Shown piece by piece: positions 5,002 to 45,132 of a stretch of 64,000 nt of DNA (position 1 is its first letter; every line of letters starts with the position of its first letter). The notes under the pieces were generated by a model. It did no database searches and had not been told where the DNA came from. It was given only the letters and a program-made list of their open reading frames with translations. Source of the DNA: Candidatus Aenigmatarchaeota archaeon (GTDB lineage: Archaea > Aenigmatarchaeota > Aenigmatarchaeia > QMZS01); contig JAGLVB010000005.1 in the NCBI GenBank assembly GCA_023134135.1, positions 19,715 through 83,714 of the forward strand, given 5' to 3'. Made by a program: the position numbers and the translations under genes.

Positions 5002-5511
5002 TTAAATCCCAAACGAAATTGTTTTATCTAGTTTATCTTTCTTTTCCCTGGTTAAAAAGCCAATCTTGTCCCTGAAAATTTCGCACCTGCTTTTTCCCTC
5101 AATATACAATGAATAATATCCGCCACTATTATAAATTACTGAATTTACATTCTCAGAATCCAAAAGTTTTTTTAGATTTTCAAGTTGTTCTCTTTTACCG
5201 GACATCCTTATAATTCTGGTTACAATTGATATTGAACTCTTTCCCTCAAAAAATCCTCTTAAAAAACCAGTTCTTTCACCTTTATTCTCTAAATCAGGAA
5301 TTTTGGTCTTGTCAATGCCAAAATTTTTAATTAAATTTTTTCCAGTTATCTTAACTGAATAACCTCTCGAAGTGCTTTTCATAGTTGCAAGAGCTATCAG
5401 GCTGCAAATCAGCTCAGCAAGTTCCTTTCTTTTTGTCTGAATCTCAATTATATTCTTTGATTTCACTGAACCGCATGAATAAAGCAAACCAATAAGTTCA
5501 AGATTTTCCAT
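5002..5511 (-). CDS. Free-standing LAGLIDADG-like protein
   Basis: Two LAGLIDADG-type helices (LIGLLYSCGSV near the N-terminus and GFLRGFFEGKSS mid-protein) in a 169-aa ORF. No host gene or intein context. Confidence 0.4.
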   Translation of the reverse strand: MENLELIGLLYSCGSVKSKNIIEIQTKRKELAELICSLIALATMKSTSRGYSVKITGKNLIKNFGIDKTKIPDLENKGERTGFLRGFFEGKSSISIVTRIIRMSGKREQLENLKKLLDSENVNSVIYNSGGYYSLYIEGKSRCEIFRDKIGFLTREKKDKLDKTISFGI

Positions 5512-6847: not shown

Positions 6848-7780
6848 TCAGAAAACAGAAAATGAACTCAATACCACAAATTTGATTATATAAAACAAAG
6901 TCAAATCTATTACCAACAGCATGCCAATATATTTAAGCCCCGCAAGTTCTTTTCCTTCCTGAATCAATCCAATCAATATCCCGCCGAATATTGAAGATAT
7001 AATCATCATGGCTATGGAATAATAAAGAAGAAATTCCTCAGATAAATTAACGCCAGACATAGTCAATTGAATTGCTCCTGTTGCCATTGGCTCATCAGGC
7101 AGAACGCCCCCCAGACCGATTAATGTTTCAGTTAGAAACAATGATGCTGAATACAACAAAGGAGCTCCAAAACTCAACGCAAGAAATATAAACATTGAAT
7201 AAGCAGTCACCTGCGCTTTTATCTCTTTCCTCAACATAGAAGTGCTTTTTATATCATCAGCGAGACCTTCAAGCAACAGAGAAAGACTGCTGCCCTTTAC
7301 AATTCCTTCCACTATCAGATTTGATGTTTTCCTTAAAACCGGAGAATTTATTTTCGCAGGGATTGCCTCAAAAGCATCTTTTATCTGCCGCCCCACAATC
7401 AAAAATTTCCCAGCTTCATTTATCTGTTCGCTAAGCGGACCAAACTCCGGTCTGGCACTCACAAGCAAAGCTTTCTCTGGAATTAACCCCGCTCTTAAAT
7501 TAGAAGAAATTAATCTCAATGCGTCAGGCAACATCTCATCCGCCAAAGAAGCCCTCTTGTTTGAAACCATCACCAAAGTAAGATGCATTATACCTTCAAC
7601 AACAAGCAAAATCACCAAAGGAATTATGCAATAAATCCATCCAAAGAAAAGATATAAAGTCAACCCAAATATTAAAAATATCAATGGAAGCGAAGAGGTA
7701 ATTTTAATGAATGTATCGCTCTCCATCTTTATCCCACTATATTTTATATATTTCTTAACCCACTCAGCATACCTTCCCAT
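6848..7780 (-). CDS. Type IV filament platform protein, single T2SSF domain (TadC/FlaJ-half-like)
   Basis: Polytopic membrane protein with a soluble T2SSF-like segment (LRLISSNLRAGL...). Immediately downstream of a similar gene and the secretion ATPase. Confidence 0.7.
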   Translation of the reverse strand: MGRYAEWVKKYIKYSGIKMESDTFIKITSSLPLIFLIFGLTLYLFFGWIYCIIPLVILLVVEGIMHLTLVMVSNKRASLADEMLPDALRLISSNLRAGLIPEKALLVSARPEFGPLSEQINEAGKFLIVGRQIKDAFEAIPAKINSPVLRKTSNLIVEGIVKGSSLSLLLEGLADDIKSTSMLRKEIKAQVTAYSMFIFLALSFGAPLLYSASLFLTETLIGLGGVLPDEPMATGAIQLTMSGVNLSEEFLLYYSIAMMIISSIFGGILIGLIQEGKELAGLKYIGMLLVIDLTLFYIIKFVVLSSFSVF

Positions 7781-7782
7781 AA

Positions 7783-8613
7783 TTATTCTATCCGGGGTCT
7801 TTTTGATTTAACAACCCCTATAAACACAAACTGGAAAACAACAATAACCAACAATATCAATGCTAAAAGCCCTTCATTTATCGCAAAATTAGAAAAAAAT
7901 GAAAGGATAATCAGGAAAGTGATTCCTATTGAAGGTATTATTATTGCAAAAATCATATACACTAAAGCGAGGGAATTTAACTGACCCCCATACATCTTAA
8001 TTTTAGTCTTCTGTTCAAGAGAATATTCTTTCACAAGTTCTTCAATAGTGCCTGAAAGATCAGAACCTGAACGAATAGCATTAAGTATCTGCCAGAGCGC
8101 CCTTCTAAAATTTATGCTTGGATTTTTAATCATCAGCTCTTCAAGAGCCTGCGTTTCAGAAACCCCATATGAAATATTTCTTACCAATTTTGAAAATTCA
8201 ACAGACACTGCGCCGTAATCTGATTTGCTCAACGAGACAAAAGAATCATAATTATTAATTCCTGACCTCATCTCAACCAGCAAATGCCTTAAAGAAAAAA
8301 GAAGATTTGCTTCAATATCCAACACTCTCTTTGAAACAATCATGCTTGGACCTAAAAGATTATATATAAAAACAACTGCTGATATAAAGACAGGAATAAA
8401 AACCACAAAACCTATAAAATTACCTCCCGGACTCACAATAAAATTAAATAAAAGCATGATAATCAAACCAAAGAATCCGAAAAAGAATGAAGTTATTATT
8501 GATTTGCCAAGATATTCATCAGCAGATACCTCCATCTCAGCCTGTTTCAACCTGACACTTAAACTTGGAAATAAGGGAAGTAAAAGTTTCCCTATTTTTT
8601 TCGCCCTTTTCAT
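7783..8613 (-). CDS. Type IV filament platform protein, single T2SSF domain (TadB/FlaJ-half-like)
   Basis: Membrane protein with a T2SSF-like soluble segment (LRHLLVEMRSGINNYDSF...ALWQILNAIRSG). Its stop lies 2 nt from the next start, and its start overlaps the ATPase stop. Confidence 0.7.
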   Translation of the reverse strand: MKRAKKIGKLLLPLFPSLSVRLKQAEMEVSADEYLGKSIITSFFFGFFGLIIMLLFNFIVSPGGNFIGFVVFIPVFISAVVFIYNLLGPSMIVSKRVLDIEANLLFSLRHLLVEMRSGINNYDSFVSLSKSDYGAVSVEFSKLVRNISYGVSETQALEELMIKNPSINFRRALWQILNAIRSGSDLSGTIEELVKEYSLEQKTKIKMYGGQLNSLALVYMIFAIIIPSIGITFLIILSFFSNFAINEGLLALILLVIVVFQFVFIGVVKSKRPRIE

Positions 8614-10088
8614 TTTATTTTTTTCATCAATTTCTCCGGGTCTTTTATATAAGAAGTTATATATCTCTCAACAGAATCCGCATCTTTAATCTTTTTTTTA
8701 ACCAAATATTCGAGCACTTTTTTGCGGTTATCAAGTTCTTTTGCTATTCCTATATCATCAAATCCCGTCAATATCTTTAACTTATTAATAGCTTTCCTGC
8801 TTTCATGATATTTAAATATCTGATCTGATTTAGGATTCCATTTATACAATATGTTTATTTTCTCGAAATTTTTGCCTTTTGAAAATGGTATCTCAGCTAT
8901 TTCATAAACTCTCCTTATACCTTTTCTCCTATCCCTAAACATAACAACAAACAAATCTATTGCATCAAGCAGGGTTTCAGGAATGGATATTGGGGGATTA
9001 ATTAATCTCCTGTAAGTCTGAACCGCGGTATCAGCATGAATGGTTGAATAAACACTATGACCTGTGTGCATAGCTTCAAATAATACTTCCGCCTCCCTGC
9101 TTCTCCTTATTTCACCAACTATTATCCTGTCCGGTCTCATCCTAAGGGAGTTTACAAGCAAATCCAGCATATCAATCTTACCCTTCCCTTCCTGATTTGG
9201 TTCTCTCGTGATCATAGGCACCCAATGCAAAAAACCAGGCAATTTTATTTCTCTTGTATCTTCTATTGAGATTATCCTTTGGTTTGGCGGGATAAATGGC
9301 ATCAGACTTGTTAAAAAACTTGTTTTTCCGGTTCCGGTTCCCCCAGATACAAGAATATTTAATTCATATTGGATTGACAGCCAAAACAAAGCCGCAACTT
9401 CAGCATCAAGGGTTTTATTTGAAATAAATTCTGAAATTGTCCACGGAATCTTCCTGAATTTCCTGATTGTTATTGTATTCCCGTCATTTGAAATTGGGGC
9501 TAAAGTGGCATTCACCCTGTCGCCGTTCGGAAGATGAGCATCCAGTAAAGGAGTAAGATTTGTAATCTGTCTCCCAACTTTTCTCCCGATAATTGAAGAA
9601 TAATTCAGTATTTCATCTTCGCTCTTTGGAGTTATATTTGTAACAAGCCACCCGAATTCCCTATGATACACCTGCGCAGGTTCTTTGCTTGAATTAATTA
9701 CCACTTCTTCAAGCGCTGGATCCTTCAACAGGATTTCCAACCTGCCCAAACCAAGCATCTCATGAACTATCATTCCAACCATATAATTTTTCTTGTTTTC
9801 TTCAATTTTTGGAATAAGTTTTTCCACTTCATTTCTCGCTTTATCTCTGAAATCATCACTTATCTTTTTCTTTTTATCCAAAGTGTTATAAGAAACCAAT
9901 TGGAGTTGGGTTATCAATCTCTCTTTAATTTCTTCGTATACTGCTCTGGTGCCTTCATCCAATTCCAAAAAGTTGATAATATAATTTGTAACAAACCCAT
10001 CTTTGCTTTTTGAAATCTCTACATCCACGCTATAATCCTCCAATCCAATCTTGTACTTACTTAACATGCTCCACCGATATTTTTCCAA
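8610..10088 (-). CDS. Type II/IV secretion-family ATPase (FlaI/VirB11/TadA-like)
   Basis: Walker A SGGTGTGKTS, Walker B/Asp box RPDRIIVGEIR, His box GHSVYSTIHA. 492 aa. Confidence 0.9.
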   Translation of the reverse strand: MEKYRWSMLSKYKIGLEDYSVDVEISKSKDGFVTNYIINFLELDEGTRAVYEEIKERLITQLQLVSYNTLDKKKKISDDFRDKARNEVEKLIPKIEENKKNYMVGMIVHEMLGLGRLEILLKDPALEEVVINSSKEPAQVYHREFGWLVTNITPKSEDEILNYSSIIGRKVGRQITNLTPLLDAHLPNGDRVNATLAPISNDGNTITIRKFRKIPWTISEFISNKTLDAEVAALFWLSIQYELNILVSGGTGTGKTSFLTSLMPFIPPNQRIISIEDTREIKLPGFLHWVPMITREPNQEGKGKIDMLDLLVNSLRMRPDRIIVGEIRRSREAEVLFEAMHTGHSVYSTIHADTAVQTYRRLINPPISIPETLLDAIDLFVVMFRDRRKGIRRVYEIAEIPFSKGKNFEKINILYKWNPKSDQIFKYHESRKAINKLKILTGFDDIGIAKELDNRKKVLEYLVKKKIKDADSVERYITSYIKDPEKLMKKIK

Positions 10089-11271
10089 ACAATGATTTCT
10101 TATATTTAATTAAATTGTGGTTTTCCAGTATCTCCAGCCACTCTTCTATTTTTTCCTCATCAATATTTAATCTTTCTTCCAGTTCTTTCATATTTGTCTC
10201 TTTTTTCCTTAAAAGATCTAAAAGTTTATCAACCTTTGTCTCAATTATATTTCCAATCACACCTTCATCTTCAGTTGAAAAAATATTTCTCGCCATTTTG
10301 TTCAATATTACGCTCCTCGTAACAACACCTACAACTTCTTTATGACTCATAACCGCAATACAGCCCGATTTGTGCAGATGCATACTAAGTATTGCTTTTG
10401 AGAGGCTATCTCCTTTAGCCAGACATATAAGATTGCCAATAATATCTCCTGCTTTTAGTTTTGCAATTTTTTTCTTTTTCCTCAATACATTAAGTATATC
10501 CGGGAGAATAATCAAACCTACAACTTTTCCTTTTTTTGAAATAAAAATGCCATTGCACTTCTTTTCAGAAAACATTCTCACCACCTCAACAACCGGAGAT
10601 TCAATATCCATAATCTCCGCTTTTTTCATAACCTCAGCAACAGTTACCGCATCCAATACATCTCTTCCGGATTTCTTTGTGTTTTTTTTAATTAATTGAT
10701 TCTTTGTTGTTTCATTCATTTTCTCCGACATTCTTCCCCGTTGCCTAGCAACGAGGGAAGATGCATCATTCGTTTTTGTGAATGAATGAAATGATGCACC
10801 GTCTTTTCTGACGAGTGTTCCTTTTTCTTTTGCAGTTGGTTTTTTTATTTCTTTTTGTTTTGTTTCCTTGGTAATTGCTCTTTCTATCTCCTTTGGTTTT
10901 GTTTCTTTGGTTACTTCTTTTGCAATTGGTTTATTTTTTTTTGTGGGGGTTGACTTCCTGAATAAAGACATAAATTTAGATTTAATATTGCTTCCCAATT
11001 TATTTTTATCTTCATTGAGTGACAACGTATGTTTGGATTTTTTTGGTGATTTTTTTTCATCAATTCTTTTAATTTTAGAATTGGAGTTCTTTGTTGAGGG
11101 TTTCTTTCTGGCTGCAGGTTTCGATTTTTTTATTGGTTTTGTTTTCCTTGCAACAGATTTCTTTGATCCTGTTTTCTCTGTTTGTTTTGATTTAACGGTG
11201 TGTTTTTTTAATTTTTCCTGTTTCTTCAATAACTCATTTAATCTGTCTGTAATATCATCTTCCTTATCCAT
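10057..11271 (-). CDS. Lysine-rich protein with CBS-pair domain
   Basis: N-terminal ~190 aa are K-rich and low-complexity. Two CBS-like modules follow (VAEVMKK...GLIILPDILNVL and GVVTRSVILNKM). The tail is possibly winged-helix. Start placed at the MDKEDD Met; the track ORF extends to 11304 and would overlap the divergent gene. Confidence 0.6.
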   Translation of the reverse strand: MDKEDDITDRLNELLKKQEKLKKHTVKSKQTEKTGSKKSVARKTKPIKKSKPAARKKPSTKNSNSKIKRIDEKKSPKKSKHTLSLNEDKNKLGSNIKSKFMSLFRKSTPTKKNKPIAKEVTKETKPKEIERAITKETKQKEIKKPTAKEKGTLVRKDGASFHSFTKTNDASSLVARQRGRMSEKMNETTKNQLIKKNTKKSGRDVLDAVTVAEVMKKAEIMDIESPVVEVVRMFSEKKCNGIFISKKGKVVGLIILPDILNVLRKKKKIAKLKAGDIIGNLICLAKGDSLSKAILSMHLHKSGCIAVMSHKEVVGVVTRSVILNKMARNIFSTEDEGVIGNIIETKVDKLLDLLRKKETNMKELEERLNIDEEKIEEWLEILENHNLIKYKKSLFGKISVEHVK

Positions 11272-11292
11272 AATTACCTTTAACTTATAATT

Positions 11293-11688
11293 ATGAAAGC
11301 CCAAGTGTCTATAGAATTCCTGATGGTCGTGGGTATTGGGATAATTATTGTATCTTCATATGTTGTTTACAGTTACCATGCTATTTATTCTTACAAAATA
11401 AACACAGATGTTAGCATCACTAAAGATGCGCTTAAAAAAATAAGCGAGAATTCAAATTTTGTTTTCAACCAGAGAAAACCCGCAAAGCATACAATCACCA
11501 TATGCCTGCCTGAAACTATAACCGGATGCTCATTGAACAACACTATTCTTGCATGTCATATAGGGGATAAAATGATATATGAAACCTCAGAAGTAAACCT
11601 AACCGGATGGATTCCCAACAATTCAGGATGTTATGAAATAAAACTGGTTGCTGAAGATACTTATGTAAATCTTGTTAAACCTGAATAA
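11293..11688 (+). CDS. Pilin-like protein, class III signal peptide (DUF361/Epd type)
   Basis: N-terminus MKAQVSIEFLMVVGIGIIIV: a short charged leader, Q-x-S-x-E-F, then a hydrophobic helix. Confidence 0.7.
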   Translation: MKAQVSIEFLMVVGIGIIIVSSYVVYSYHAIYSYKINTDVSITKDALKKISENSNFVFNQRKPAKHTITICLPETITGCSLNNTILACHIGDKMIYETSEVNLTGWIPNNSGCYEIKLVAEDTYVNLVKPE

Positions 11689-11695
11689 TATTAAT

Positions 11696-12064
11696 ATGAA
11701 AGCGCAGGCATCTGTTGAATTTTTGGTTTTGGTTGGGATATTGAGCCTGATATTTGTGATTATATTCGGTTATTCCGGAGGATATTACTTTTATTCAGAA
11801 AAACTGAAAGTTGAAGAAACATATGAAAATATATGCGATACAGTGAAACTCGAAATAGAAACCGCTCTTGAAGTAGGGCCTTATTACAGCCGTACTTTCT
11901 ATCTTGAACCCGGAGACCACGCAGTTTCAATACAAAATTATGAAGTTATTGTCAGCAAAGATAATCTGATAAAAATCTGCTATATACCGATAAATATCTC
12001 GGCAAATCTAAATAATGGTGAAAATACTATAATATATAATGAAACGGGCGTTTCCTTTGTATAA
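11696..12064 (+). CDS. Pilin-like protein, class III signal peptide (DUF361/Epd type)
   Basis: MKAQASVEFLVLVGILSLIFVI at the internal ATG 11696. The track ORF starts at 11672. Confidence 0.7.
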   Translation: MKAQASVEFLVLVGILSLIFVIIFGYSGGYYFYSEKLKVEETYENICDTVKLEIETALEVGPYYSRTFYLEPGDHAVSIQNYEVIVSKDNLIKICYIPINISANLNNGENTIIYNETGVSFV

Positions 12065-12506
12065 AGGTCAGATTTTCTCCTTTGACTTCCTTATTGCCTG
12101 TTCAATATTTATACTTGTTCTTGCGATTCTGATTAGTCATATTGGGTATAATACCATGCAACTAAATGAATTAAAAGAAAAGCGCGAATTGACTCAAAGC
12201 GGTTATAAGCTAAGTGAAATATTTTTTATGGAAGGGTATCCAAAAAACTGGAATGTTAGCAATGTTGAAATTATAGGTCTGCAGACAAACAACCGGATTG
12301 ACTGGAACAAATTAAAAGAACTTGAAAACCTTGGATACCAGAAAAGTCTGATATTGCTTGGTCTTAAATATGATTATAACCTGACTATTGGAAATTATAC
12401 TTTCGGAAAAAATCCTGAAAATGCGTCTTCAGCTTTTATAATAAACCGTGTTGGAATTCTAAATTCATCTGTTGTTTCTATACAGGCGGTAATTTTTAAA
12501 ATATGA
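12039..12506 (+). CDS. Pilin-like protein, class III signal peptide
   Basis: MKRAFPLYKGQIFSFDFLIACSIFILVL: KGQ-x-x-S-x-D-F plus a hydrophobic helix. Overlaps neighbours in operon fashion. Confidence 0.6.
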   Translation: MKRAFPLYKGQIFSFDFLIACSIFILVLAILISHIGYNTMQLNELKEKRELTQSGYKLSEIFFMEGYPKNWNVSNVEIIGLQTNNRIDWNKLKELENLGYQKSLILLGLKYDYNLTIGNYTFGKNPENASSAFIINRVGILNSSVVSIQAVIFKI

Positions 12507-15211: not shown

Positions 15212-15217
15212 GAAATA

Positions 15218-18200
15218 TTATGAAAGAAACCAGATATTATTAAATTTCTTGAATTCAATTATTTCTTTTCCACTTAAACTTCCTGCTTTTTGGTAAGGTT
15301 TTACTGGAATTTCTAAACTAATAGTTGCTTCTCTTGGTAAAGTGTTAATATCTATTCCTTCTAAAGATAATTCTCCCTCTATATAGAACCAATTCTTTTT
15401 AAATTTCTCCTTAGATTTTTCATAGGGTAACCAATAAATAAATGCCCTTTTAATATCAATTCCTGTATTTAAACTATCATCCACTTTTATTTTCCATTTC
15501 CAAGGTTCATGATAAAACCAAAAATTTCTGAATTCTTTAAAAGTTACTTTATCTTTTCCTTCTTTATCTGCAATCTTAAAATATAAAAAAGCTGATTTAT
15601 TTATGTCCTTTTTTTGGTAATCTTCGGGTAATTCAAAGCTCCCTAAGATAGTAAACTTGGTATTATCCTTTGAATGTTTACTTGAATAAACTATTTTTAT
15701 CTTTTTAATCAAGAAAGATTCCATTGATTTTGGAACAACTTTGAAAGTTGCCATGTCTTCTTTAACATTTCCACTTTTATCAGTTGCTACGACCCTTAAT
15801 ATGTGTTTAGTTTCACCTAAATATTTACCTAAATCTATTGAATATTCAGTATAAACTTCTTCGTCTAAATAAAGTTTTACTTTCGGATTTAGGTCACAAA
15901 TATCACTAACTGCATAATTTATTAGTACTGGTTCTTGTTTATTTAAATAAATAATTTCCTTTGGTGAAATAATATTTACTTCTGGAGGACAAGTATCTAT
16001 TACAGTAACAGTTGAATTGCCAATTCCTATTCCTCCATCATCATCAATTATAAAGATAGCAACTGTATAATTATTTGCAATACAGTATTTATGATTTCCT
16101 TTAATATTATCCATTCCATTTCCTTCTTCAATGGTCCCTTCGTCAATTGTTCCGTCGCCCCAATCAATTTTAGCAGTATGAGTATCTAACAAACCGAGAT
16201 CATTAAAAGAAGCATTTAATGAAATCACATCTAAACAGCATTCAACAGTTTGATTTAAAATAGTTTCAATTATTGGAGGAACATTTTTGACTGTAATATT
16301 AGCAATGTCGGTAGCAGTAAATTCTCCATCGTTGATTTCTAATTTAACTATACCACTATAATCATCATCCCAAGTATAATTAACAATTGGGTTAATTGAC
16401 CAACCGGTATCCCAAATTCCATCATTATTAAAATCCCATCTATATTGAAGAACATCTCCATCAGAATCGTAAGAACCAGAACCATTAAATGTTATTGAAG
16501 AGCCCTCATAATTTTCATAAGGACCATTAGCATCTGCTATTGGCTGTAGATTCTTCTTTATTTTAACTGTTTTTTGTACTGAATCTCTTATTCCATTATC
16601 ATCCACTACAGTTAATATTACACTATAATTAGCTGGAGAAGAATAAAAATGGGTAACCACCTCTCCATTTTCTATTTCTCTATCTCCAAACTTCCATCTA
16701 TAAGAAACAATTAAACCGTCTGAATCATAAGAGGAAGAAGCATTAAAGGTTATTTCTTTGTCAACTATAATATTTTCTGAAGAATAGGTAAATAATGCAA
16801 CAGGAGGTTGATTTATATTAATTATTTCATTCACATTAGGAATTTTTTCCTCGTCTATTTCCCCATCTCCATCATAGTCTATACTCATTGTATAGTTTAT
16901 AACATTTGACTCTATTTTAACCAAAACTCTTGTATTTTTGGTTATTGATATATTTCCAAATTTTGTTATAGAAATATTATTTTCAATTGGTGAAACTTTT
17001 GTGAATTTGAATTTACCTGCATCATATGCGTCTATCCTAACAGAATAAATAATGTTTATTGGCAAGTAGAATATCTTCGTCTCATTTGTTATAAATATGC
17101 TTGCATTTGGTATTTCATTTGTTCCGTTGTCTGAGATAATCCTATTGTATTGATCAGTGATTGTAACATTTATAGGGCACTCAAAGATAAGCACATGATT
17201 ATATATACCAAAATTGATTATTGCTTGTTCATCAACTTTATAATTCTCACATGGTTCTATCAACGGATAGTCATCTAACGACTTCTTTAGAAGTCCCATA
17301 TAATAAGGAGTGTCACCAATTCCATCATTATTTGTGTCTGATTCAGCATAATCATCCCAATAATTTCCTATATAATTTTTGAATTGTATATTATTGTAAA
17401 TATAATCTATTTTTAAAGGGGAAGAATCCCAAAAAGATGATTCTGCATCAGGACATAGAACTGGAAGAATTCCTTTGTTATTTATAAAATTATTAGGAAG
17501 AATTTTGTTACCGTATGAGTCAAACAGATTTATTACTTTCTTGTTGCTTACAAAAGTATTCTGTATTACATTATTTTCAACACATGGTATGGCAAAGGCT
17601 GCATGTCCCGAAGGACCTTTTAAGACAACCCCAAAATCATTTGAGTCTATTTCATTATGTGCTATTATATTAAAAGAAGAACCATAAATATGAACCCCAA
17701 AATGATTATTTAGTATCTTATTTGAGGATATACTGCAACGATGACAGGATGGACCAATATGTATCCCAGCAGGTTCTGACCACCAAGAACCTTTTGCACC
17801 CTCAATAGTAAACCCACTTATTTTTACAGGTCCCCATAAGGAATGCACAAAGAATACATCAGTATTTTGGTCTTTAGCTTGAACCAGCGTATCCTCAGGA
17901 TTTCCAGAAGTTGATTTAATAGTTAGTGATTTAGAAATATCCACATTTTCTACATAAATCCCGGGATCAACTATAATTGTATCTCCATTTTTTGTATTGG
18001 AATCATCTATTGCAGCTTGAATTGTTGGAAAGTCCTCGCCGGTATCAAGATTGTGAATTGGTAATTTTGTTGATTCAAAATAAGTCTCAAAAGGTTCCAT
18101 TAGAGGATAATTATCGCCACCAGATTCTATTATGTAGGGACTATCTCCAAGTCCATCTCCATCTCCATCAACTCCTTCATAATCCTCCCAATAATTACCT

Positions 18201-18859
18201 AAATAGTTTGTGTAAGTGTTACCTTTATAGGTATAGATTATTTTTTCTGGGTAATTCCAGAGATTAAATTCACTACCAAAACCATTAAGTTTATCTCTAA
18301 AGTTATTGAGGTAAGCTTTGTTATTTTTTGGGCACCAACAGCCACCCTCCACACAAATACCAATTAGACCTATGTTAAATTTGTTTGGTCCAATAGTGTT
18401 CCTATAAATTTTGTTATCGGTAGTTGGAGTTAAACTAATTCCTATGTTGTTATTCGCTATGATATTGTTTTTGATTGTGTTATTGCTTGAAACTATTGTA
18501 ATTCCAGTTAATGGACCCATCTTTCCATTAGCTCCTTCAACTGTAAACCCATCTATAGTTACATAATCCGCAGTTACTACAAAAACAGAATCCTCTGAAT
18601 TCTTAGCTTGAACAATCGTCTTTTCAGCTCCATTTTCTGATTTTATAGTTAAGTGATCTTTACTGACTTTAATATTTTCTCTATAACTCCCATCTCCAAT
18701 AATTATAATATCTCCAGAATTTGCAGCATCAACTGCTGCTTGAATAGACGAATACTCATCAGGTACATATAAAATTACTGCAGAGACTACTTCTACAAAA
18801 CTCAAACTAAAAACAAATGTAATTATTAACAATATAATTTTTTTATTTGGTGTTCCCAT
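15218..18859 (-). CDS. Secreted surface protein: two right-handed beta-helix (NosD/PbH1-like) modules plus PKD domains
   Basis: Signal peptide present. Each helix module shows beta-helix repeat patterns (NNTIKNNIIANNNIGISL) and ends in DGDGDGLGDSPY or DTNNDGIGDTPYY. PKD signatures are FNASSSYDSDG..YRWKFGD, FNGSGSYDSDG..YRWDFNNDG and IDWGDG. Confidence 0.8.
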   Translation of the reverse strand: MGTPNKKIILLIITFVFSLSFVEVVSAVILYVPDEYSSIQAAVDAANSGDIIIIGDGSYRENIKVSKDHLTIKSENGAEKTIVQAKNSEDSVFVVTADYVTIDGFTVEGANGKMGPLTGITIVSSNNTIKNNIIANNNIGISLTPTTDNKIYRNTIGPNKFNIGLIGICVEGGCWCPKNNKAYLNNFRDKLNGFGSEFNLWNYPEKIIYTYKGNTYTNYLGNYWEDYEGVDGDGDGLGDSPYIIESGGDNYPLMEPFETYFESTKLPIHNLDTGEDFPTIQAAIDDSNTKNGDTIIVDPGIYVENVDISKSLTIKSTSGNPEDTLVQAKDQNTDVFFVHSLWGPVKISGFTIEGAKGSWWSEPAGIHIGPSCHRCSISSNKILNNHFGVHIYGSSFNIIAHNEIDSNDFGVVLKGPSGHAAFAIPCVENNVIQNTFVSNKKVINLFDSYGNKILPNNFINNKGILPVLCPDAESSFWDSSPLKIDYIYNNIQFKNYIGNYWDDYAESDTNNDGIGDTPYYMGLLKKSLDDYPLIEPCENYKVDEQAIINFGIYNHVLIFECPINVTITDQYNRIISDNGTNEIPNASIFITNETKIFYLPINIIYSVRIDAYDAGKFKFTKVSPIENNISITKFGNISITKNTRVLVKIESNVINYTMSIDYDGDGEIDEEKIPNVNEIININQPPVALFTYSSENIIVDKEITFNASSSYDSDGLIVSYRWKFGDREIENGEVVTHFYSSPANYSVILTVVDDNGIRDSVQKTVKIKKNLQPIADANGPYENYEGSSITFNGSGSYDSDGDVLQYRWDFNNDGIWDTGWSINPIVNYTWDDDYSGIVKLEINDGEFTATDIANITVKNVPPIIETILNQTVECCLDVISLNASFNDLGLLDTHTAKIDWGDGTIDEGTIEEGNGMDNIKGNHKYCIANNYTVAIFIIDDDGGIGIGNSTVTVIDTCPPEVNIISPKEIIYLNKQEPVLINYAVSDICDLNPKVKLYLDEEVYTEYSIDLGKYLGETKHILRVVATDKSGNVKEDMATFKVVPKSMESFLIKKIKIVYSSKHSKDNTKFTILGSFELPEDYQKKDINKSAFLYFKIADKEGKDKVTFKEFRNFWFYHEPWKWKIKVDDSLNTGIDIKRAFIYWLPYEKSKEKFKKNWFYIEGELSLEGIDINTLPREATISLEIPVKPYQKAGSLSGKEIIEFKKFNNIWFLS

Positions 18860-18922
18860 AATTTATTTTTTATTCATATTATTCAAAATCTTAAACATAA
18901 ACATATTATTTTGTTAAGTATT

Positions 18923-19741
18923 ATGAGAGTGGATAATTTTATTTCAGCATTTTTTTTACTAATTTTCTTTTTAATTCCAATCCATGCTATAGATATTACA
19001 ACAATTTCTTTTTCTCAAAACATAACTGAAATTTTACCATGTTTTACAGCAGATAAAACTAAAATATTTGTTACACATTTTTCAGCAGAAAAAAATGAGA
19101 CTAAAGAAGTGCCAATTTATATTACAAGCGTTAGTAATCTATCAGAAGTTGTTGTTTTTATCAAGTATAATAATAAGGTAATAAAACCTGATTATATCTC
19201 TGATGGAAACTTTAACATTAGTTATATGGTTGAAGATGAAATAAAAATAAATCTTAACTTAAACGAAACTTTTACAGGAGATTTTTTGTTGGCAAAGATT
19301 TTTTTTAAAGCAATAGGTGATGGAGGAGAAAGCACTTCTATTACTATTGAAGTTGACAAGTTTCTGGATAATAATTCAAATGAAATTATTTACTTAACCT
19401 TGAATGGTATGTTTAGCATAAACCTTGAATATGCGGAAGAAACAAAAGATTCTGAAGGAGGGGTGGACTCCAGTCTTGAAGGTCTAATAAACTCAGACAA
19501 TCCCGCAGAATATGCTGAAAAAAATAATCTTGAATTTGAAGACGGAAAAGTCAAAGTTGTGATGGAGACAAATGATTCAAAAGAAGAAAAATTTGTAAGC
19601 ATAGATGAACTCAACAATCTTACAAACAATGAAACCATCACAAGAATCAGCCCTTACAGGGAGATTCCTGTAAAAGAAATAATTATTATACTTGCAATTA
19701 TAATCCTGTTAATTATTCTTATTTTAAAACTTCGAAGATGA
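18923..19741 (+). CDS. Cohesin-like domain protein with C-terminal membrane anchor
   Basis: Signal peptide present. Cohesin-like beta-sandwich pattern (VPIYITSVSNLSEVVVFIKYNNKVIKP...FLLAKIFFKAIGDGGESTSITIE). Acidic linker, C-terminal TM plus KLRR. ATG at 18923; the track uses TTG at 18911. Confidence 0.5.
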   Translation: MRVDNFISAFFLLIFFLIPIHAIDITTISFSQNITEILPCFTADKTKIFVTHFSAEKNETKEVPIYITSVSNLSEVVVFIKYNNKVIKPDYISDGNFNISYMVEDEIKINLNLNETFTGDFLLAKIFFKAIGDGGESTSITIEVDKFLDNNSNEIIYLTLNGMFSINLEYAEETKDSEGGVDSSLEGLINSDNPAEYAEKNNLEFEDGKVKVVMETNDSKEEKFVSIDELNNLTNNETITRISPYREIPVKEIIIILAIIILLIILILKLRR

Positions 19742-20967
19742 AAGGGGTTTTGTTTTCAGTGATATTTACGCTTATTTTAATAGTTGTCCTCTCTCTGGTA
19801 TTATTGCAAAGAGAAAATGTTTCTTATGAAAGACATAATATATTTTTAACCCAGGAAATCAAGGATTTGAAATACACTTATAACAGCATTGAAAGAAGTA
19901 TCCACATATTATCAGATGTCACTGTAAAAAGAGCTGTAATTTCATCTTTAAATGAGATTATAGACAGCGGAAGTTTTTTTGCGGATAACAAAACAGAAGA
20001 GAACCTTCTCGAACTTATCTGGAACGGAACTTTGAACGGGACAAATATTTCCGGAATGGGGGATAATACTTTAAGCAATAGCATATCCGAACTTGAAATA
20101 TTTTATAAAGACACCAAAGATTATGATATAAGCATAAACCTTAAACAAAGCAAAATATCGCTAGACAACTCTTTTTACATCCTGTTTAGTGCAACTGCTG
20201 AGATTAATATTTCTAAAGAAGGACTTGCAAGGATTTCCAAAGAAGTTGAAATAATTGAAAAGGTATGGATTGATGATTTTGAAGACCCTCTTTATCTTAT
20301 AAATATAACTGCGGGCAAAGGTTCCAGAAAAATAAAGAAAAGCGAATATATTGGTGATTTTTCAGAATTGATTTTAAGCGGAAATACTGAAAGCGGGTGG
20401 TGTTATGGGGAACTTGTAATTACCGATAATATAACAACCATTCCTGATAAAGATGAAAAGATTGCTGTTGTTGCAACTGCTTTGATTTACTCTCCCTCTG
20501 AAATAAATGATTTTTGCGGAATAATCTCTGAAAGCAATTTTCCTGCAAATGTTACAATACCCCGTCTTAAAAATAATAATGCAACAACCATATTGATTGA
20601 CAATTCAAACATTTTACTGTCCGGGGGGAAAGGCAAAGTCTGGAATATAAGCAATTTTATTAAACATGTTGATAACAAAAGATATATAAACTCAACCTCA
20701 GGTCCGAGTTTCTTTGACAGGATGGAAGGAAAAAATTACTGCTCCTATTGTTCAGCAAATCGCAGTGTTGGGTTGGAAAGTTTTGCTGATAAAAATGAAT
20801 TGTTAAGTTACGGGATTGATGTGGAAGTGGATGCAACAAATATTGAATATCTTTATATGAATATTACCTCTGGAGTTGATGTTGGACTGGATGAAAGTAA
20901 CACCGGAGTTACTGAGTTTAAATATTTTAGGATTGATGAGGATTCGATTGAGAGGTATTTTAAATAA
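19738..20967 (+). CDS. Pilin-like/N-terminally anchored extracellular protein
   Basis: MKGVLFSVIFTLILIVVLSLVLL N-terminus (KG followed by a hydrophobic helix). The sequon-rich 409-aa body has no recognisable domain. Confidence 0.45.
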   Translation: MKGVLFSVIFTLILIVVLSLVLLQRENVSYERHNIFLTQEIKDLKYTYNSIERSIHILSDVTVKRAVISSLNEIIDSGSFFADNKTEENLLELIWNGTLNGTNISGMGDNTLSNSISELEIFYKDTKDYDISINLKQSKISLDNSFYILFSATAEINISKEGLARISKEVEIIEKVWIDDFEDPLYLINITAGKGSRKIKKSEYIGDFSELILSGNTESGWCYGELVITDNITTIPDKDEKIAVVATALIYSPSEINDFCGIISESNFPANVTIPRLKNNNATTILIDNSNILLSGGKGKVWNISNFIKHVDNKRYINSTSGPSFFDRMEGKNYCSYCSANRSVGLESFADKNELLSYGIDVEVDATNIEYLYMNITSGVDVGLDESNTGVTEFKYFRIDEDSIERYFK

Positions 20968-20998
20968 CAAGATTTATTTATAATTGAATAACTTAATA

Positions 20999-21691
20999 AT
21001 GAAAATTCATAAAAAGAACAAAGTATCAAAAAAGGATTTGTTAATTGCTATTCTTTATTTAGAGATATTAGTTTCTGCTTTTATCCTACCTCTAATGGGT
21101 TTTTATTCTGTATTGGGATTAATTTTAAGTGAGGTATTTTATATAATACTGGCTTATTGGCTCCACCCAAAATTAAAAACCTTAAATCCAACTCAAAAAC
21201 GAAAGTTTAATTTAGGTATTATAATCCTATTCATATCTTTAAATTTAGGTATTATTTTAGAGCCTTATTCCCTTATAAACGGAACTTATCCAACTATAAA
21301 AAGTATCTCTTCTTACATCACATTGCCTGCATTATTTAGCTTGTTTATTTTAACAAGTCATTCACTTAATCACTTAGAAAAAATTGCCAAAGAAGCTATG
21401 GAATATATAAGTAAAATTATGATCATAATAACCTTTTTATTTCTCATAATTTCCAATAATATTTTATTCTCACAAACAGTAATTGAAATAATTGTAATTG
21501 GTATTTGCTTTATTTTAGTTTCTGGGGTTATTGGAATAGCTTATCTTTATGAAAAAGTTGATTCCAAAAAAAACAAATCTGATTTAAGAAAATCTTTGCT
21601 GTTCTCATATTCATTCTTTTTGTTATTACTCGTTTTTATGATGACTTCACTTTCAATCATAACAAATCTACCATTATCTCTTATTTATTAA
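20999..21691 (+). CDS. Polytopic membrane protein, unknown function
   Basis: At least six hydrophobic segments. ATG at 20999; the track uses TTG at 20984. Confidence 0.5.
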   Translation: MKIHKKNKVSKKDLLIAILYLEILVSAFILPLMGFYSVLGLILSEVFYIILAYWLHPKLKTLNPTQKRKFNLGIIILFISLNLGIILEPYSLINGTYPTIKSISSYITLPALFSLFILTSHSLNHLEKIAKEAMEYISKIMIIITFLFLIISNNILFSQTVIEIIVIGICFILVSGVIGIAYLYEKVDSKKNKSDLRKSLLFSYSFFLLLLVFMMTSLSIITNLPLSLIY

Positions 21692-21730
21692 TCTGAAAAT
21701 GTAAAAATAAATTGAATCAAAAAATTAAAA

Positions 21731-22138
21731 TTAGTTATGTATAATTGCAGTATCTGTGTGTGTTAAAGTACTTAACCTATCTACATAAGTTAAATTCATA
21801 TAGATGTCTGACGTACTTGTATCACTTATATTTATTTTAAACTGCTGATTTGCCGATATATTCATGAGTGCAACACCTTCTATACTACAAGTTCCTCCGC
21901 TAATAGTGCAGCCTACATTATTCAAATCTCTGGGACCATTTTTGATTATTAAATCACCTTCAGCATAATCCACATATGCAAATTTTGAGAAACAAGGACT
22001 GCAAGGCATTGCTGAACTGCTTGGATTAAATACCCCCATTGAATAAAGCGCTGCTATTGCTATTACAACTATCGCTATTGCGATACCATAAGTCATTAGA
22101 TATTCTAAGGAAACTTGTCCTTTTCTTGTATCAATCAT
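21731..22138 (-). CDS. Major pilin candidate, class III signal peptide (DUF361/Epd type), paralogue 1
   Basis: MIDTRKGQVSLEYLMTYGIAIAIVVIAIAALY. 135 aa. The first 51 aa are identical to the neighbouring paralogue. Confidence 0.8.
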   Translation of the reverse strand: MIDTRKGQVSLEYLMTYGIAIAIVVIAIAALYSMGVFNPSSSAMPCSPCFSKFAYVDYAEGDLIIKNGPRDLNNVGCTISGGTCSIEGVALMNISANQQFKINISDTSTSDIYMNLTYVDRLSTLTHTDTAIIHN

Positions 22139-22163
22139 AATTAAGTGTGTTTTATATATAATA
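21996..22163. repeat. 168-nt block identical to 22495-22662 (tandem duplication, period 499 bp)
   Basis: Direct comparison of the two pilin loci. The block covers 25 nt of 5' flank plus about 47 codons. Outside it the copies diverge. Confidence 0.9.
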
Positions 22164-22229
22164 ATCCCTTTTAAATTGAAATTGGTTAATTTAACAGAAA
22201 ATTAAAAATCCAGAAAATAAAAATCAAAA

Positions 22230-22637
22230 TTAGTTGTGTATTGTTGCTATGTCGGTGTGTGGTAATCCGCTCAAGGCATCAGTATAACTTAAAGTCAGGG
22301 GTACATTCTGCTCGGTTTTATTACCTAGAGTTATTTTAAATTGTTGATTTGCTGATAGGTTTACTAAGGCAAAACTGTCAATATTGCAGGTTCCTCCAGT
22401 AACATTACAATATACATTTTCCAAAGCCCTAGGTCCATTTTTAATCATTAACTCGCCATCAGCATAATCCACATATGCAAAACTTGAGAAACATGGACTG
22501 CAAGGCATTGCTGAACTGCTTGGATTAAATACCCCCATTGAATAAAGCGCTGCTATTGCTATTACAACTATCGCTATTGCGATACCATAAGTCATTAGAT
22601 ATTCTAAGGAAACTTGTCCTTTTCTTGTATCAATCAT
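22230..22637 (-). CDS. Major pilin candidate, class III signal peptide (DUF361/Epd type), paralogue 2
   Basis: Same N-terminal 51 aa as 21731..22138 with a diverged C-terminal globular part. 135 aa. Confidence 0.8.
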   Translation of the reverse strand: MIDTRKGQVSLEYLMTYGIAIAIVVIAIAALYSMGVFNPSSSAMPCSPCFSSFAYVDYADGELMIKNGPRALENVYCNVTGGTCNIDSFALVNLSANQQFKITLGNKTEQNVPLTLSYTDALSGLPHTDIATIHN

Positions 22638-22662
22638 AATTAAGTGTGTTTTATATATAATA
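22495..22662. repeat. Second copy of the 168-nt identical pilin 5' block
   Basis: See 21996-22163. Confidence 0.9.
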
Positions 22663-22728: not shown

Positions 22729-24009
22729 TTATTCAAGTAGCCATTTCCACAAAGGAACAACTCTTATAACAAATCCATCCTGTTTAATTTCCTCTTCTTC
22801 ATCATAACTGATAATCAATAACTCCCTGCATTTCAATTCTTCGGATGCTTTAACTAAACCTTTAATTTCCCTTTTTCGCGTATCATCATCTTCAAGAGAA
22901 TAACAAACCTGAATTAATTGTTTAACTTTCAGTCCATCTTTTACAACAAAATCAACTGCGCTATTTATTCCATTCCAGAAATATAAATCCAATCCGGGAT
23001 TTATTGCTTGTTTTCTTTTTAATTCCAAAAAAACAACATTCTCAATTATCCTTGTTTTATTGTCAAACATTGGCGGAGAAATAGCGTTCACCAGCCCCGC
23101 ATCTATCGCATAAATTTTTTTTGGCGAAATCAATTGTATTTTTGTTTTGTAAGAAAAAGGGAATAATTGAAAAATAAGATATGATTCTTCCACATAAGAA
23201 ATATAATTTTTTATTGTATGCACGCTTTTAACATCAAATAAATTTTTAAGTTTATTGTATGAAATTTCTTTTGAACAATTTGAAATAATATAATTTATAA
23301 TTTCTTTCAATGTTTTCGAGTATTTTATATTGTATCTTGTTACTATATCTTTTCCAATAATTCCATTATACAGGGTTGTTAGATAATTTTTGTTTTCTTT
23401 GTATTTCAAAACTTCTGGAAACCCCCCTGTTTTCAGATAGTCTCCAAGATATTTTTTTATACTGCCTATTCTTTTTGGCAGATAGATATCTTCCCGAGAT
23501 ATTTTAAAATCTTTGTAGTTCAAAAATTCTCTAAATGAAAAAGGATAAATTTGTATTTCATTATATCTTCCTGTAAGATGCGTCGCCAATTCCTTGCTTA
23601 ATAATTTTGCATTGCTTCCTGTAATTACTAAATTATATCCCTGTCTTTGCAACCGGTTTACAAATAATTCCCATCCTTCTATATTTTGTATTTCGTCAAA
23701 AAACAGGAATTTAAAATTTCCATAAATTTCGTGCAAGGTTTCAATAATTTTGTTGCTATCTTCAATTGATATTCTGGATAATTTTTCATCATCAAAATTA
23801 ACATAAGCAAACTTTTCTTTTTCAAGCAATTCGAGTGAAAAAATTGATTTCCCGCATCTCCTGATTCCTGTTATAACTTTGATTAATTTAGTTTTCTTAA
23901 ATTTTTTCATTACTGGGAGAATTTCTCTCTCAATTAATTTCTGTTTTTTTGTTTCTTTTAATTCCTCTTTTTGAAGAATTAAAATCTTTTTAAGTTCTTC
24001 TTTATTCAT
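22729..24009 (-). CDS. AAA-type ATPase with DUF4143-like C-terminus (COG1373 family)
   Basis: P-loop GIRRCGKS, Walker B FLFFDEIQ, and the GGFPEV motif typical of this archaeal ATPase family. Confidence 0.75.
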   Translation of the reverse strand: MNKEELKKILILQKEELKETKKQKLIEREILPVMKKFKKTKLIKVITGIRRCGKSIFSLELLEKEKFAYVNFDDEKLSRISIEDSNKIIETLHEIYGNFKFLFFDEIQNIEGWELFVNRLQRQGYNLVITGSNAKLLSKELATHLTGRYNEIQIYPFSFREFLNYKDFKISREDIYLPKRIGSIKKYLGDYLKTGGFPEVLKYKENKNYLTTLYNGIIGKDIVTRYNIKYSKTLKEIINYIISNCSKEISYNKLKNLFDVKSVHTIKNYISYVEESYLIFQLFPFSYKTKIQLISPKKIYAIDAGLVNAISPPMFDNKTRIIENVVFLELKRKQAINPGLDLYFWNGINSAVDFVVKDGLKVKQLIQVCYSLEDDDTRKREIKGLVKASEELKCRELLIISYDEEEEIKQDGFVIRVVPLWKWLLE

Positions 24010-45106: not shown

Positions 45107-45132
45107 ATATTCTTTGACAATAAAAATTAAAC

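Follow-up and report, generated by a model that had tools for sequence, protein, structure and literature searches.

Results

A type IV filament locus and its counterparts in other DPANN archaea

Our analysis concerns a 64,000-nt stretch (the window) of the 84-kb metagenomic scaffold JAGLVB010000005.1, a contig of the Candidatus Aenigmatarchaeota metagenome-assembled genome (MAG) GCA_023134135.1, which represents a very small, probably symbiotic archaeon, and, within the window, a 16-kb pilus locus at positions 6848–22637 (all coordinates refer to the window unless another locus is named); in exact-protein look-ups, NCBI labels the window proteins Candidatus Aenigmarchaeota. The products of the locus are an ATPase with a T2SSE domain, two T2SSF platform proteins of half size, one CBS protein, and seven proteins whose N-termini are of class III type (three small ones, one of 902 aa, one of 409 aa, and two 135-aa paralogues), along with a NosD/PKD protein and a cohesin-fold protein. 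The four genes for the ATPase, platform, and CBS proteins overlap or abut on the minus strand, and the pilin operon diverges from them on the plus strand; the operon spacing is tight, with gene overlaps of 4–26 nt. An earlier, sequence-only reading had described this block as an Epd/Tad-like type IV filament locus loaded with adhesin-type proteins. Our map of the open reading frames (ORFs) finds every gene on its list in place, and its calls of the ATPase, the two single-domain platform genes, the CBS protein, the quoted pilin N-termini, the vWA and beta-helix/PKD proteins, the 135-aa paralogues, and the lack of a prepilin peptidase in the window are all borne out below; its list of pilin-like proteins is correct as far as it goes, but omits the 409-aa protein. 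Scans of the window for tRNAs and Rfam families found nothing.

For comparison, we fetched 80 DPANN loci by way of relatives of the ATPase (47–92% identity); these span Aenigmatarchaeota, Nanohaloarchaeota, Woesearchaeota, Pacearchaeota, Iainarchaeota, Micrarchaeota, and Parvarchaeota, and their ORFs were called and compared with the window proteins by BLAST. Extra Aenigmatarchaeota relatives (L085, L087, and L089) were found through the cohesin-fold and 409-aa proteins. The synteny comparison, which the sequence-only reading had recommended, identifies a module that recurs in the 80 loci and has three parts: a five-gene operon (pil1-pil2-pil3-large pilin-p409, in which the large pilin of the window is the 902-aa protein and p409 is the 409-aa protein); a second operon, in which a gene for a winged helix-turn-helix (wHTH) protein is followed by the ATPase and the N- and C-terminal platform genes; and a stand-alone major pilin, mostly located just past the platform genes. 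Among the 44 loci of at least 15 kb, the split platform is found in 41, at least three pilin-like genes in 39, and at least five in 33, and BLAST detects the major pilin family in 26. The closer Aenigmatarchaeota relatives have a contiguous operon (pil1-pil2-pil3-large pilin-cohesin-fold protein-p409) without the NosD/PKD gene; the ATPase, platform, and small pilins of L089, the closest of them, are 87–92% identical to those of the window.

One member of the comparison set, from Micrarchaeota (L069, JABWCK010000003), carries two full copies of the module (minor-pilin operon plus wHTH-ATPase-platform operon) adjacent to one another on one contig. Two other contigs are labeled with names from outside DPANN: that of L063 (‘Methanosarcinales archaeon’) has the whole DPANN-type pilus module, and on that of L077 (‘Colwellia polaris’) only the DPANN-type ATPase and its wHTH neighbor were detected. 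The occurrence of this ATPase on both contigs suggests that they were mis-binned in the public MAGs.

The motor: one ATPase and a platform split into two genes

The assembly ATPase (8610–10067, minus strand; 485 aa, with an alternative TTG start at 10088) matches Pfam T2SSE with E = 1.2e-36. Its catalytic boxes can be read directly, that is, the Walker A (SGGTGTGKTS), Asp, Walker B, and His boxes (GGTGTGKT, IEDTRE, IIVGEIR, and STIHA); this is the set that characterizes the PilB/VirB11-type ATPases of the type IV filament superfamily. The platform is encoded by two genes on the same strand, each with one T2SSF domain that scores above the Pfam cut-off, as in the platforms of that superfamily: the first (7783–8613, 276 aa, E = 9e-16), in a TadC-like position, aligns with residues 4–248 of the FlaJ model, and the second (6848–7780, 310 aa, E = 3.5e-12), in a TadB-like position, aligns with residues 264–550. 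From these model ranges, the two genes are the N- and C-terminal halves of one FlaJ/TadC-type platform; BLAST matches to the N-terminal half occur in 76 of the 80 loci and matches to the C-terminal half in 71.

By raw score against the PDB, the ATPase is closest to afGspE (236 bits, vs 204 for FlaI and 172 for CpaF), so it could be taken for the afGspE-like ‘euryarchaeal clade 2’ type; quartet and neighbor-joining analyses contradict that assignment. In a neighbor-joining tree calculated from 318 shared columns of 30-odd DPANN ATPases, afGspE, FlaI, CpaF, and a second ATPase encoded by L017 (EpdL was not in the tree), the DPANN clade groups with CpaF against FlaI, afGspE, and the second L017 ATPase in 200 of 200 bootstraps; with gamma distances, or with the slow sites alone, this grouping is retained in 95–100% of the bootstraps.

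The second L017 ATPase, which pairs with afGspE in the tree, is part of a second, distinct type IV pilus (T4P) cluster (positions 1247–3172 of L017, from Nanoanaerosalina, and neighbors) beside the conserved one; it has 641 aa (35% identity) and is linked to Pilin_N-type pilins. Both the CpaF grouping, which is consistent with the Tad/Epd side of the tree, and the pairing of the L017 protein with afGspE fit earlier reports that Micrarchaeota and cluster-2 DPANN (PMC11291902) have two T4P systems of distinct kinds.

Predicted minor pilins and their conserved cleavage-site motifs

The plus-strand operon begins with three small pilin-like genes (the arrow marks the predicted cleavage site): pil1 (11293–11688, 131 aa, MKA↓QVSIEFL), pil2 (11696–12064, 122 aa, MKA↓QASVEFL, in an ORF that extends from TTG 11672), and pil3 (12039–12506, 155 aa, YKG↓QIFSFDFL, with its acidic residue at +6). 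The large pilin follows, and p409 (19738–20967, plus strand; 409 aa, MKG↓VLFSVIF) has no acidic residue past the cleavage site. BLAST finds orthologues of pil1 in 37 of the 80 loci, of pil2 in 18, of pil3 in 35, and of p409 in 32; in all 32, p409 is the final gene of the operon. Each family has its own consensus, that is, K-[GAS]↓Q-x-[AS]-x-E-Y for pil1, ↓Q-x-[SG]-x-E-F for pil2, K-[GAS]↓Q-[IV]-[FW]-S-x-D for pil3, K-[GA]↓x-x-F-[ST]-L-D for the large pilin, and K-G↓hydrophobic-x-[FY]-[ST] for p409, the sole family without an acidic residue. The motif occurs in seven genes of the locus, and it is conserved column by column in the orthologues from the 80 loci, so it is not due to chance; this is the pilin signature of the type IV filament superfamily.

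In an AlphaFold2 model of p409, the confident part, residues 1–180, forms a 76-residue N-terminal helix (residues 2–77), two more helices, and a three-stranded sheet, with the N-terminal helix and the sheet at a predicted local distance difference test (pLDDT) score of 80–95; the modeled N-terminal half is compatible with a pilin-type head. There are 1713 representatives of the p409 family at E ≤ 1e-3, which makes it a large one; they fall into two length classes. Past p409 lies a gene for a polytopic membrane protein (20984–21691, plus strand; 235 aa, called as 230 aa) without a Pfam match or GxGD motif; it has a 41% identical homologue in the same place in L089 only, and BLAST finds no homologue in the 80 loci.

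Two stand-alone genes with class III-like N-termini lie outside the locus. The first (39554–40048, plus strand) is of the Pilin_N/DUF1628 type (ELKG↓ISPVIATILMV; PF07790, E = 4e-4), and the second (54608–55159, minus strand) encodes 183 aa with the N-terminus MRG↓VNVIIGEIYL; both may be parts of another pilus system, one with its motor outside the window.

Predicted major pilins

The two 135-aa paralogues, A (21731–22138, RKG↓QVSLEYL) and B (22230–22637), are encoded on the minus strand and share 73% protein identity. Members of this family occur as a stand-alone gene in 40 of the 80 loci, mostly adjoining the platform genes; the consensus is K-G↓Q-[AS]-A-x-E-Y-L-M-T-Y-G-W, and Q7, E11, L13, and G17 are invariant across 42 family sequences. 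The family profile finds archaeal pilus subunits of solved structure, and the alignments take in the globular domain as well as the helix; the best match is AapB of the Sulfolobus acidocaldarius Aap pilus (8Q30, E = 8e-6), and 8FJ5, 8FK7, 6NAV, and 6W8X are also found (E = 8e-6 to 0.17 across 8Q30, 8FJ5, 6NAV, and 6W8X). Short pilin ORFs of the Flp/Epd type (Q/E-Y) were not found in the window.

The same 25-nt block with a TATA-like core, TATTATATATAAAACACACTTAATT, stands immediately 5′ of the ATG of pilin A (22139–22163, minus strand) and before pilin B (22638–22662, minus strand), and we consider both copies candidate promoter elements. Since the block is repeated, each of the two genes appears to be separately promoted, as would be expected of abundant subunits; both genes have T-rich ends. 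The identity of the 25 upstream nucleotides extends into the coding sequences, which have one synonymous difference up to approximately +190 and then diverge; the synonymous divergence (dS) is 0.03 in the shared 5′ part and 1.2 (saturated) in the rest, with a ratio of nonsynonymous to synonymous divergence (dN/dS) of 0.23. This pattern suggests gene conversion confined to the promoter and the conserved N-terminal helix.

The large vWA pilin

The fourth gene of the minor-pilin operon (12503–15211, plus strand; 902 aa, MRG↓MVFSLD) encodes a predicted large modular pilin-like adhesin. Residues 406–527 match VWA_2 (5e-11, 43.6 bits vs a threshold of 27) and VWA (4e-9, 37.2 vs 23.8), and the metal ion-dependent adhesion site (MIDAS) is complete, with DVSGS at 412, GT near 491, and TDG near 521; the fold and the DxSxS, T, and D elements that characterize vWA adhesins are therefore all present. 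The protein also contains 42 N-x-S/T sequons. Inside the vWA domain, beside the MIDAS loop, is a Cys-rich insert (residues ∼525–620), with 24 Cys in 120 residues; the homologues have at most 11 in the equivalent 120-residue stretch.

The modules of this protein differ from locus to locus. Among 63 large pilin-like proteins identified by their position in the operon, a set that takes in further large pilin-like ORFs of these loci, 19 have a VWA match, and the others have LVIVD, Reelin-B, GEVED, CARDB, or beta-propeller modules; within the family defined by BLAST (26 members), the MIDAS is present in about half, and members of ∼620–670 aa lack it. The L089 orthologue has 1439 aa, vs 902 aa in the window, and combines VWA_2 with DUF2341, a domain singled out in clade 1 loci by Makarova et al. 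The adhesin and cohesin-fold proteins are 49–75% identical to their L089 counterparts vs 87–92% for the rest, that is, they evolve much faster.

A cohesin-fold protein and an inserted NosD/PKD gene

Two more genes of the locus separate the large pilin from p409. The second of these (18923–19741, plus strand; 272 aa, or 276 aa from TTG 18911) encodes a membrane-anchored protein with a Sec signal peptide, a cohesin module (residues ∼30–170), a small alpha/beta domain, and a C-terminal transmembrane (TM) helix. Neither Pfam nor a PDB sequence search identifies it as a cohesin; the conclusion ‘not a cohesin’ is, however, overturned by structure prediction. The best Foldseek match of an AlphaFold2 model built from 16 homologues (pLDDT 78.9) is the non-cellulosomal cohesin of Archaeoglobus fulgidus (2XDH, E = 3.5e-10, TM score 0.79), followed by dozens of type I cohesins with root mean square deviations of 2.2–2.6 Å; there are 95 PDB matches at E ≤ 0.001, and the top ones listed are cohesin modules, with their nine-stranded beta-sandwich. 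The label ‘cohesin-like’ in the sequence-only reading is thus correct for the fold and not for membership by sequence. The similarity to 2XDH and the type I cohesins covers the fold of residues ∼30–170 (E = 3.5e-10, TM scores 0.72–0.79); the window protein differs from them in having no Pfam Cohesin match and no dockerin partner found in the window, in being membrane-anchored, and in being encoded in a pilin operon.

A dockerin partner was not found in the window, either with Pfam or with a six-frame regular expression for EF-hand-like dockerin loops; the DYDGDGEIDEE loop of the NosD/PKD protein, considered as a dockerin, does not fit the pattern. The cohesin-fold protein has no BLAST homologue in the 80 loci. 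In the closer relatives its gene is located between the large pilin and p409, and it is operon-internal only in this Aenigmatarchaeota clade; it is a clade-specific yet genuine member of the operon. The L089 orthologue (9216–10004 of that locus) is 49% identical to the window protein, vs 87–92% for the flanking pilus genes.

The other gene (15218–18859, minus strand) encodes a 1213-aa secreted surface protein with a NosD beta-helix (5e-14), PKD domains (PKD_4, 1.8e-36), and a Sec-type signal peptide. BLAST finds no homologue in the 80 loci, and the operons of L085, L087, and L089, although collinear in other respects, lack the gene; given its absence from the 80 loci and from L089, in which the flanks are 87–92% identical, we interpret it as a recent lineage-specific insertion and not a conserved pilus component. 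The phrase ‘loaded with adhesin-type proteins’ therefore overstated the case: with the NosD/PKD gene an insertion, the locus has fewer dedicated adhesins than it appears to have.

The alternative, that the NosD/PKD protein is a dedicated pilus adhesin, has in its favor that the gene stands within the pilus locus, with the large pilin on one side and the cohesin gene on the other, and that its product has adhesin-type domains and a signal peptide. We consider this improbable; the gene is on the opposite strand, its signal peptide is Sec-type instead of class III, and neither the 80 loci nor L089, L085, and L087 have it.

The gene in front of the ATPase

The fourth minus-strand gene (10057–11271, 404 aa) encodes a protein with a Lys-rich N-terminal region, a CBS region (E = 3e-9, in two stretches), and a C-terminal wHTH domain; we predict it to be a cytoplasmic accessory or regulatory protein. 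In Pfam, the HTH matches (TrmB, ArsR, DUF4423) are weak. The ORF reaches back to TTG 11304, from which it would overlap pil1; if ATG 11271 is the start, the start codons of this gene and of pil1 are only 21 nt apart (11272–11292), which forces the two promoters into coding sequence. An N-terminal extension of ∼200 aa, the Lys-rich region, is not present in the L085 orthologue (236 aa), which makes the true start of the window protein uncertain.

We used the C-terminal 70 residues (10057–10269) for an iterated hidden Markov model search, and this identified a 55-residue wHTH domain (consensus I-x-T-x-x-D-x-L...E-E-W-x-x-I-L-E...Y-P-x-x-G) in 72 of the 77 proteins whose genes directly precede the ATPase. 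The domain is C-terminal in 49 proteins and N-terminal in 19; its partner region is CBS in Aenigmatarchaeota, a long coiled coil in others (e.g., L059 from Nanohaloarchaeota), or two to six TM helices. The wHTH profile matches archaeal DNA-binding domains (LrpA, 1I1G, 4.6e-6), and the Lrs14 family is matched in 29 of the 72.

The coiled-coil forms are probably the coiled-coil protein (‘CCP’) of the cluster-2 DPANN pilus loci for which Hamm et al. (2024, PMC11291902) drew a parallel to sigma-1, an attachment protein of viruses. TM segments are absent from all of the coiled-coil forms, and the L059 example lacks a signal peptide, so a cytoplasmic role, regulatory or motor-associated, seems likelier for them.

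The prepilin peptidase

No prepilin peptidase (Peptidase_A24) was found on the 84-kb contig, using Pfam lists and a scan for the GxGD motif; of this genome, the search covered the contig alone. The polytopic ORFs at 20984–21691 and 31538–32305 were considered as the missing enzyme and rejected for lack of both a Pfam match and a GxGD motif. The sequence-only reading had likened the pilins to the EppA-dependent ones of Methanococcus; neither EppA nor another A24 peptidase was found at the locus, on the contig, or in the 80 related loci, except for one doubtful polytopic GGGD protein in L066.

Relationship to known type IV systems

We conclude, with a probability of about 0.8, that the locus is a T4P gene set of the archaeal Epd/Tad-related branch, in a form that is conserved across DPANN. 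The Epd-like (System 1) pili of methanogens, Thermococcales, and DPANN are defined by a platform split into two single-domain genes (PMC6668835; 10.64898/2026.04.22.720090), as found here. Like the Epd pilus of Methanococcus maripaludis (Makarova clade 1), the locus has a single ATPase, pilin N-termini that resemble the QxSxE pattern (DUF361/UPF0333), at least five minor pilin-like genes, and large adhesin-like proteins, including the L089 orthologue with DUF2341. The residues next to the cleavage sites of the pilins (Q at +1, E at +5, then Y or F) likewise fit the Epd/Tad label.

Several observations weigh against this conclusion or against parts of it. The major pilin of Epd-like systems is short (∼70 aa), helix-only, and non-globular, but the 135-aa pilins of the window have a beta-rich globular part; the dedicated 9-TM peptidase EppA, another mark of Epd-like systems and frequently encoded in their loci, is missing at the locus, on the contig, and, but for the doubtful L066 protein, in the 80 loci; and no peptidase that would process the pilins was found on the contig. 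The CpaF grouping comes from a neighbor-joining tree with three solved references and without EpdL, and membership beside EpdL is thus tentative. The Pfam model for class III signals (PF04021) is below its cut-off in the 135-aa pilins (16.5 bits vs 23.7) and gives no score for the three small pilins of the window. ‘Major’ and ‘minor’ are assignments that we infer. For p409, half of the structural model is below pLDDT 50, with the C-terminal half left unmodeled; Foldseek against the PDB returns only insignificant NTF2-like matches (E > 0.05); and the cap role that we propose for it below is based on a missing acidic residue, a last-gene position, and an analogy.

The PF04021 result deserves comment, as the sequence-only reading would have been refuted by pilin-like ORFs that fail to score for class III signal peptides; the score is there, but weak. 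At E ≤ 0.1 the model finds 3 of 42 major and 24 of 91 minor pilin orthologues, and a single orthologue reaches the cut-off (L022 pil1, 23.8 bits); the L010 orthologue of pil2 matches DUF7266 (32 bits, cut-off 27.6), and one pil3 orthologue has a weak DUF7287 match. Given the profile matches of the major pilin to solved pilins and the ‘UPF0333 family’ label that JGI gives to several pilin homologues, we accept the class III reading of the window pilins, and we take it that the PF04021 model does not cover the family. For the DUF361 designation of the sequence-only reading, motif and label speak in favor and the Pfam score against. Its broader ‘Epd/Tad-like’ is mostly right: the split platform, the N-termini, the minor-pilin set with its adhesin, and the CpaF grouping agree with it, and the type of major pilin, EppA, and PF04021 do not.

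The locus differs from that of the Epd pilus also in its wHTH accessory gene and in the lack of a MinD/TadZ-like ATPase. No MinD/FleN (TadZ-like) ATPase was found in the locus, and two ParA/CbiA-type Fe-S P-loop genes (43395–45154) that were considered for this role are 21 kb away in an unrelated context.

With the bacterial Tad (Flp) pilus (CpaF/TadA, TadB, TadC, TadE/F, and TadG), the locus shares an ATPase that groups with CpaF, two half-size platform genes, and E5-Y6 in the pilins, which is also found in the Flp motif; the vWA-bearing pilin-like protein recalls TadG (mentioned in PMC4858521). It differs in the lack of a secretin, TadZ, TadD, and TadV, in its globular major pilin, in the order of the platform genes (N-terminal half, then C-terminal half), and in its single-membrane archaeal context. 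Closest appear to be the T4P loci of cluster-2 DPANN (PMC11291902) and the ‘Tad-like’ clusters of Undinarchaeota and Nanohaloarchaeota (PMC9563170), which have the same ATPase and TadC-like pair, a combination that is spread over Aenigmatarchaeota, Nanohaloarchaeota, Woesearchaeota, Pacearchaeota, and others, and, in Nanohaloarchaeota, a gene for a coiled-coil protein before the ATPase. We differ from the earlier descriptions in assigning the five-gene minor-pilin operon and the major pilin family and in recognizing the wHTH domain in the upstream protein, in which CBS replaces the coiled coil in the lineage of the window.

More remote is the similarity to the Aap pilus of S. acidocaldarius, for which the major pilin profile aligns with AapB (8Q30), as with 8FJ5, 6NAV, and 6W8X, over the helix and globular domain; this likeness is one of sequence profiles, and the Aap pilus has a single platform gene and an ATPase of another group. 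The fusion of a pilin N-terminus to a vWA/MIDAS domain is also found among the bacterial tip adhesins (PilB of Streptococcus sanguinis, PMC8179133; PilY1/PilC and the GspK tip); these have no sequence relation to the archaeal protein beyond vWA, and that protein is far larger, has the Cys-rich insert, and would be located at the tip by analogy. Minor-pilin sets with one acid-less member, here p409, also occur in bacteria. GspK and PilX are bacterial minor pilins that lack the acidic residue and form a cap.

Other genes at and near the locus

A free-standing LAGLIDADG-type ORF (5002–5511) adjoins the platform genes; in the same place the closest relative in this respect, L002 (4100–6175 of that locus), has an intact 169-aa copy (82% identical), together with LAGLIDADG-like ORFs of 86 and 79 aa, both shorter. 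The contig of the window has repeated occurrences of AAA_14/DUF4143 ATPase genes, and one (22729–24009) abuts the major pilin genes, as does one in L065; others are at 1068–2423 and 7472–8629 of L083, and the adjacency to major pilin genes is probably a coincidence. Near the right end of the window, Pfam identifies adjacent HEPN and nucleotidyltransferase genes (61793–62877) of the toxin-antitoxin type. After the pilus genes of L087 come (8358–14174 of that locus) a number of genes for KaiC-like ATPases, one that fuses KaiC to a small GTPase, and one for a Roadblock/LC7 protein; KaiC-like and Roadblock-type families have been noted earlier as neighbors of archaeal T4P loci.

Discussion

The gene content described above can be assembled into a model for the filament. 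The seven pilin-like precursors would each have a basic leader of 3–9 residues, ending in K/R-G/A, that is removed by a class III signal peptidase encoded elsewhere. The five minor pilins would form a priming complex that ends up at the tip, capped by p409, the sole member without an acidic residue at +5/+6, in analogy to bacterial GspK and PilX; the exposed adhesin of the complex would be the vWA pilin. Driven by the ATPase, the 135-aa pilins would then polymerize under this complex. Through the MIDAS site, the filament would fasten the cell to some surface, and that of a host cell is the most plausible one, with the fast-evolving adhesin and cohesin modules providing binding specificity. The wHTH/CBS protein may couple expression or assembly to the cellular adenylate status, and the NosD/PKD gene would be a later insertion outside of the machine. 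Attachment to a host is our inference from gene content; a function of the conserved DPANN T4P loci in host interaction has been proposed previously (PMC11291902, PMC5498576).

Three other functions can be considered. An archaellum is suggested by the top NCBIfam matches of the motor genes, which are the FlaI and FlaJ models; however, the scores (291/550 bits for FlaI and at most 46/550 bits for FlaJ) are far under the equivalog cut-offs, the 84-kb contig has no archaellin, FlaH, FlaF/G, or FlaC/D/E gene, the platform is split, and the ATPase clade is apart from FlaI in every bootstrap. The low scores, the missing genes, and the tree together refute the assignment of the ATPase and platform to motility. 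[quoted passage not shown] A dedicated, separately promoted, and duplicated pilin that matches filament-forming pilins would be hard to explain in this way, the window contains no dockerin motif or Pfam dockerin, the locus encodes no substrate-binding proteins with class III leaders, and the cohesin gene is limited to one Aenigmatarchaeota clade, so we regard a pseudopilus as very improbable.

A filament that serves mainly as a competence pilus, that is, one that takes up DNA to feed a nucleotide-auxotrophic cell, is somewhat easier to accommodate. Pilus genes are among those reported to be essential for natural transformation of M. maripaludis (PMC10133366), DNA import via such pili has been proposed for DPANN (PMC9563170), and the single ATPase recalls the Tad systems, which both extend and retract (PMC11300603). 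Neither the window nor the conserved module, however, has a linked DNA-binding pilin, ComEC-like channel, or nuclease, and the conserved large pilin carries modules that bind proteins or glycans (vWA/MIDAS, LVIVD, CARDB, and DUF2341). DNA uptake as the main function is therefore unlikely in our view; the two roles are not mutually exclusive, and uptake is plausible as an additional role of a pilus used for adhesion.

If the locus encodes an attachment pilus, a more specific and tentative proposal can be made, to which we would give distinctly less than an even chance. The five-gene operon may be a DPANN-wide tip complex for host recognition, with swappable modules (vWA/MIDAS, DUF2341, LVIVD, and others) that set the host range; one Aenigmatarchaeota clade may have added a fast-evolving, membrane-anchored cohesin ‘plug’ that works with the pilus; and the coiled-coil proteins may be cytoplasmic wHTH regulators, not viral-fiber-like attachment proteins.

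DPANN T4P and Tad-like loci have already been published (Hamm 2024, PMC11291902; Sivabalasarma and Albers 2026; PMC9563170), so the kind of system is known, and the parts list and the tip-complex hypothesis are incremental; the value of this work is in annotation and hypotheses, not in a new kind of system. Of two earlier papers on DPANN pilus loci (PMC11291902, PMC9563170), one states that no pilins were annotated and the other names filament proteins for one of two locus types. To these we add a concrete parts list, consisting of one major pilin family, five minor pilins with the modular adhesin pilin, and the accessory protein with its wHTH domain, together with the lineage-specific extras of the window (the operon-internal cohesin, the Cys-rich vWA insert, and the inserted NosD/PKD gene). 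The list carries the prediction that the pilins are processed by a peptidase whose gene is at another place in the genome. For DPANN archaea, an episymbiotic life is either obligate or suspected. Type IV pili drive episymbiosis in the ultrasmall Saccharibacteria, as has been demonstrated experimentally (PMC11623550). For the archaea described here, we propose that the specificity for the host may reside in the adhesin pilin and the cohesin protein.

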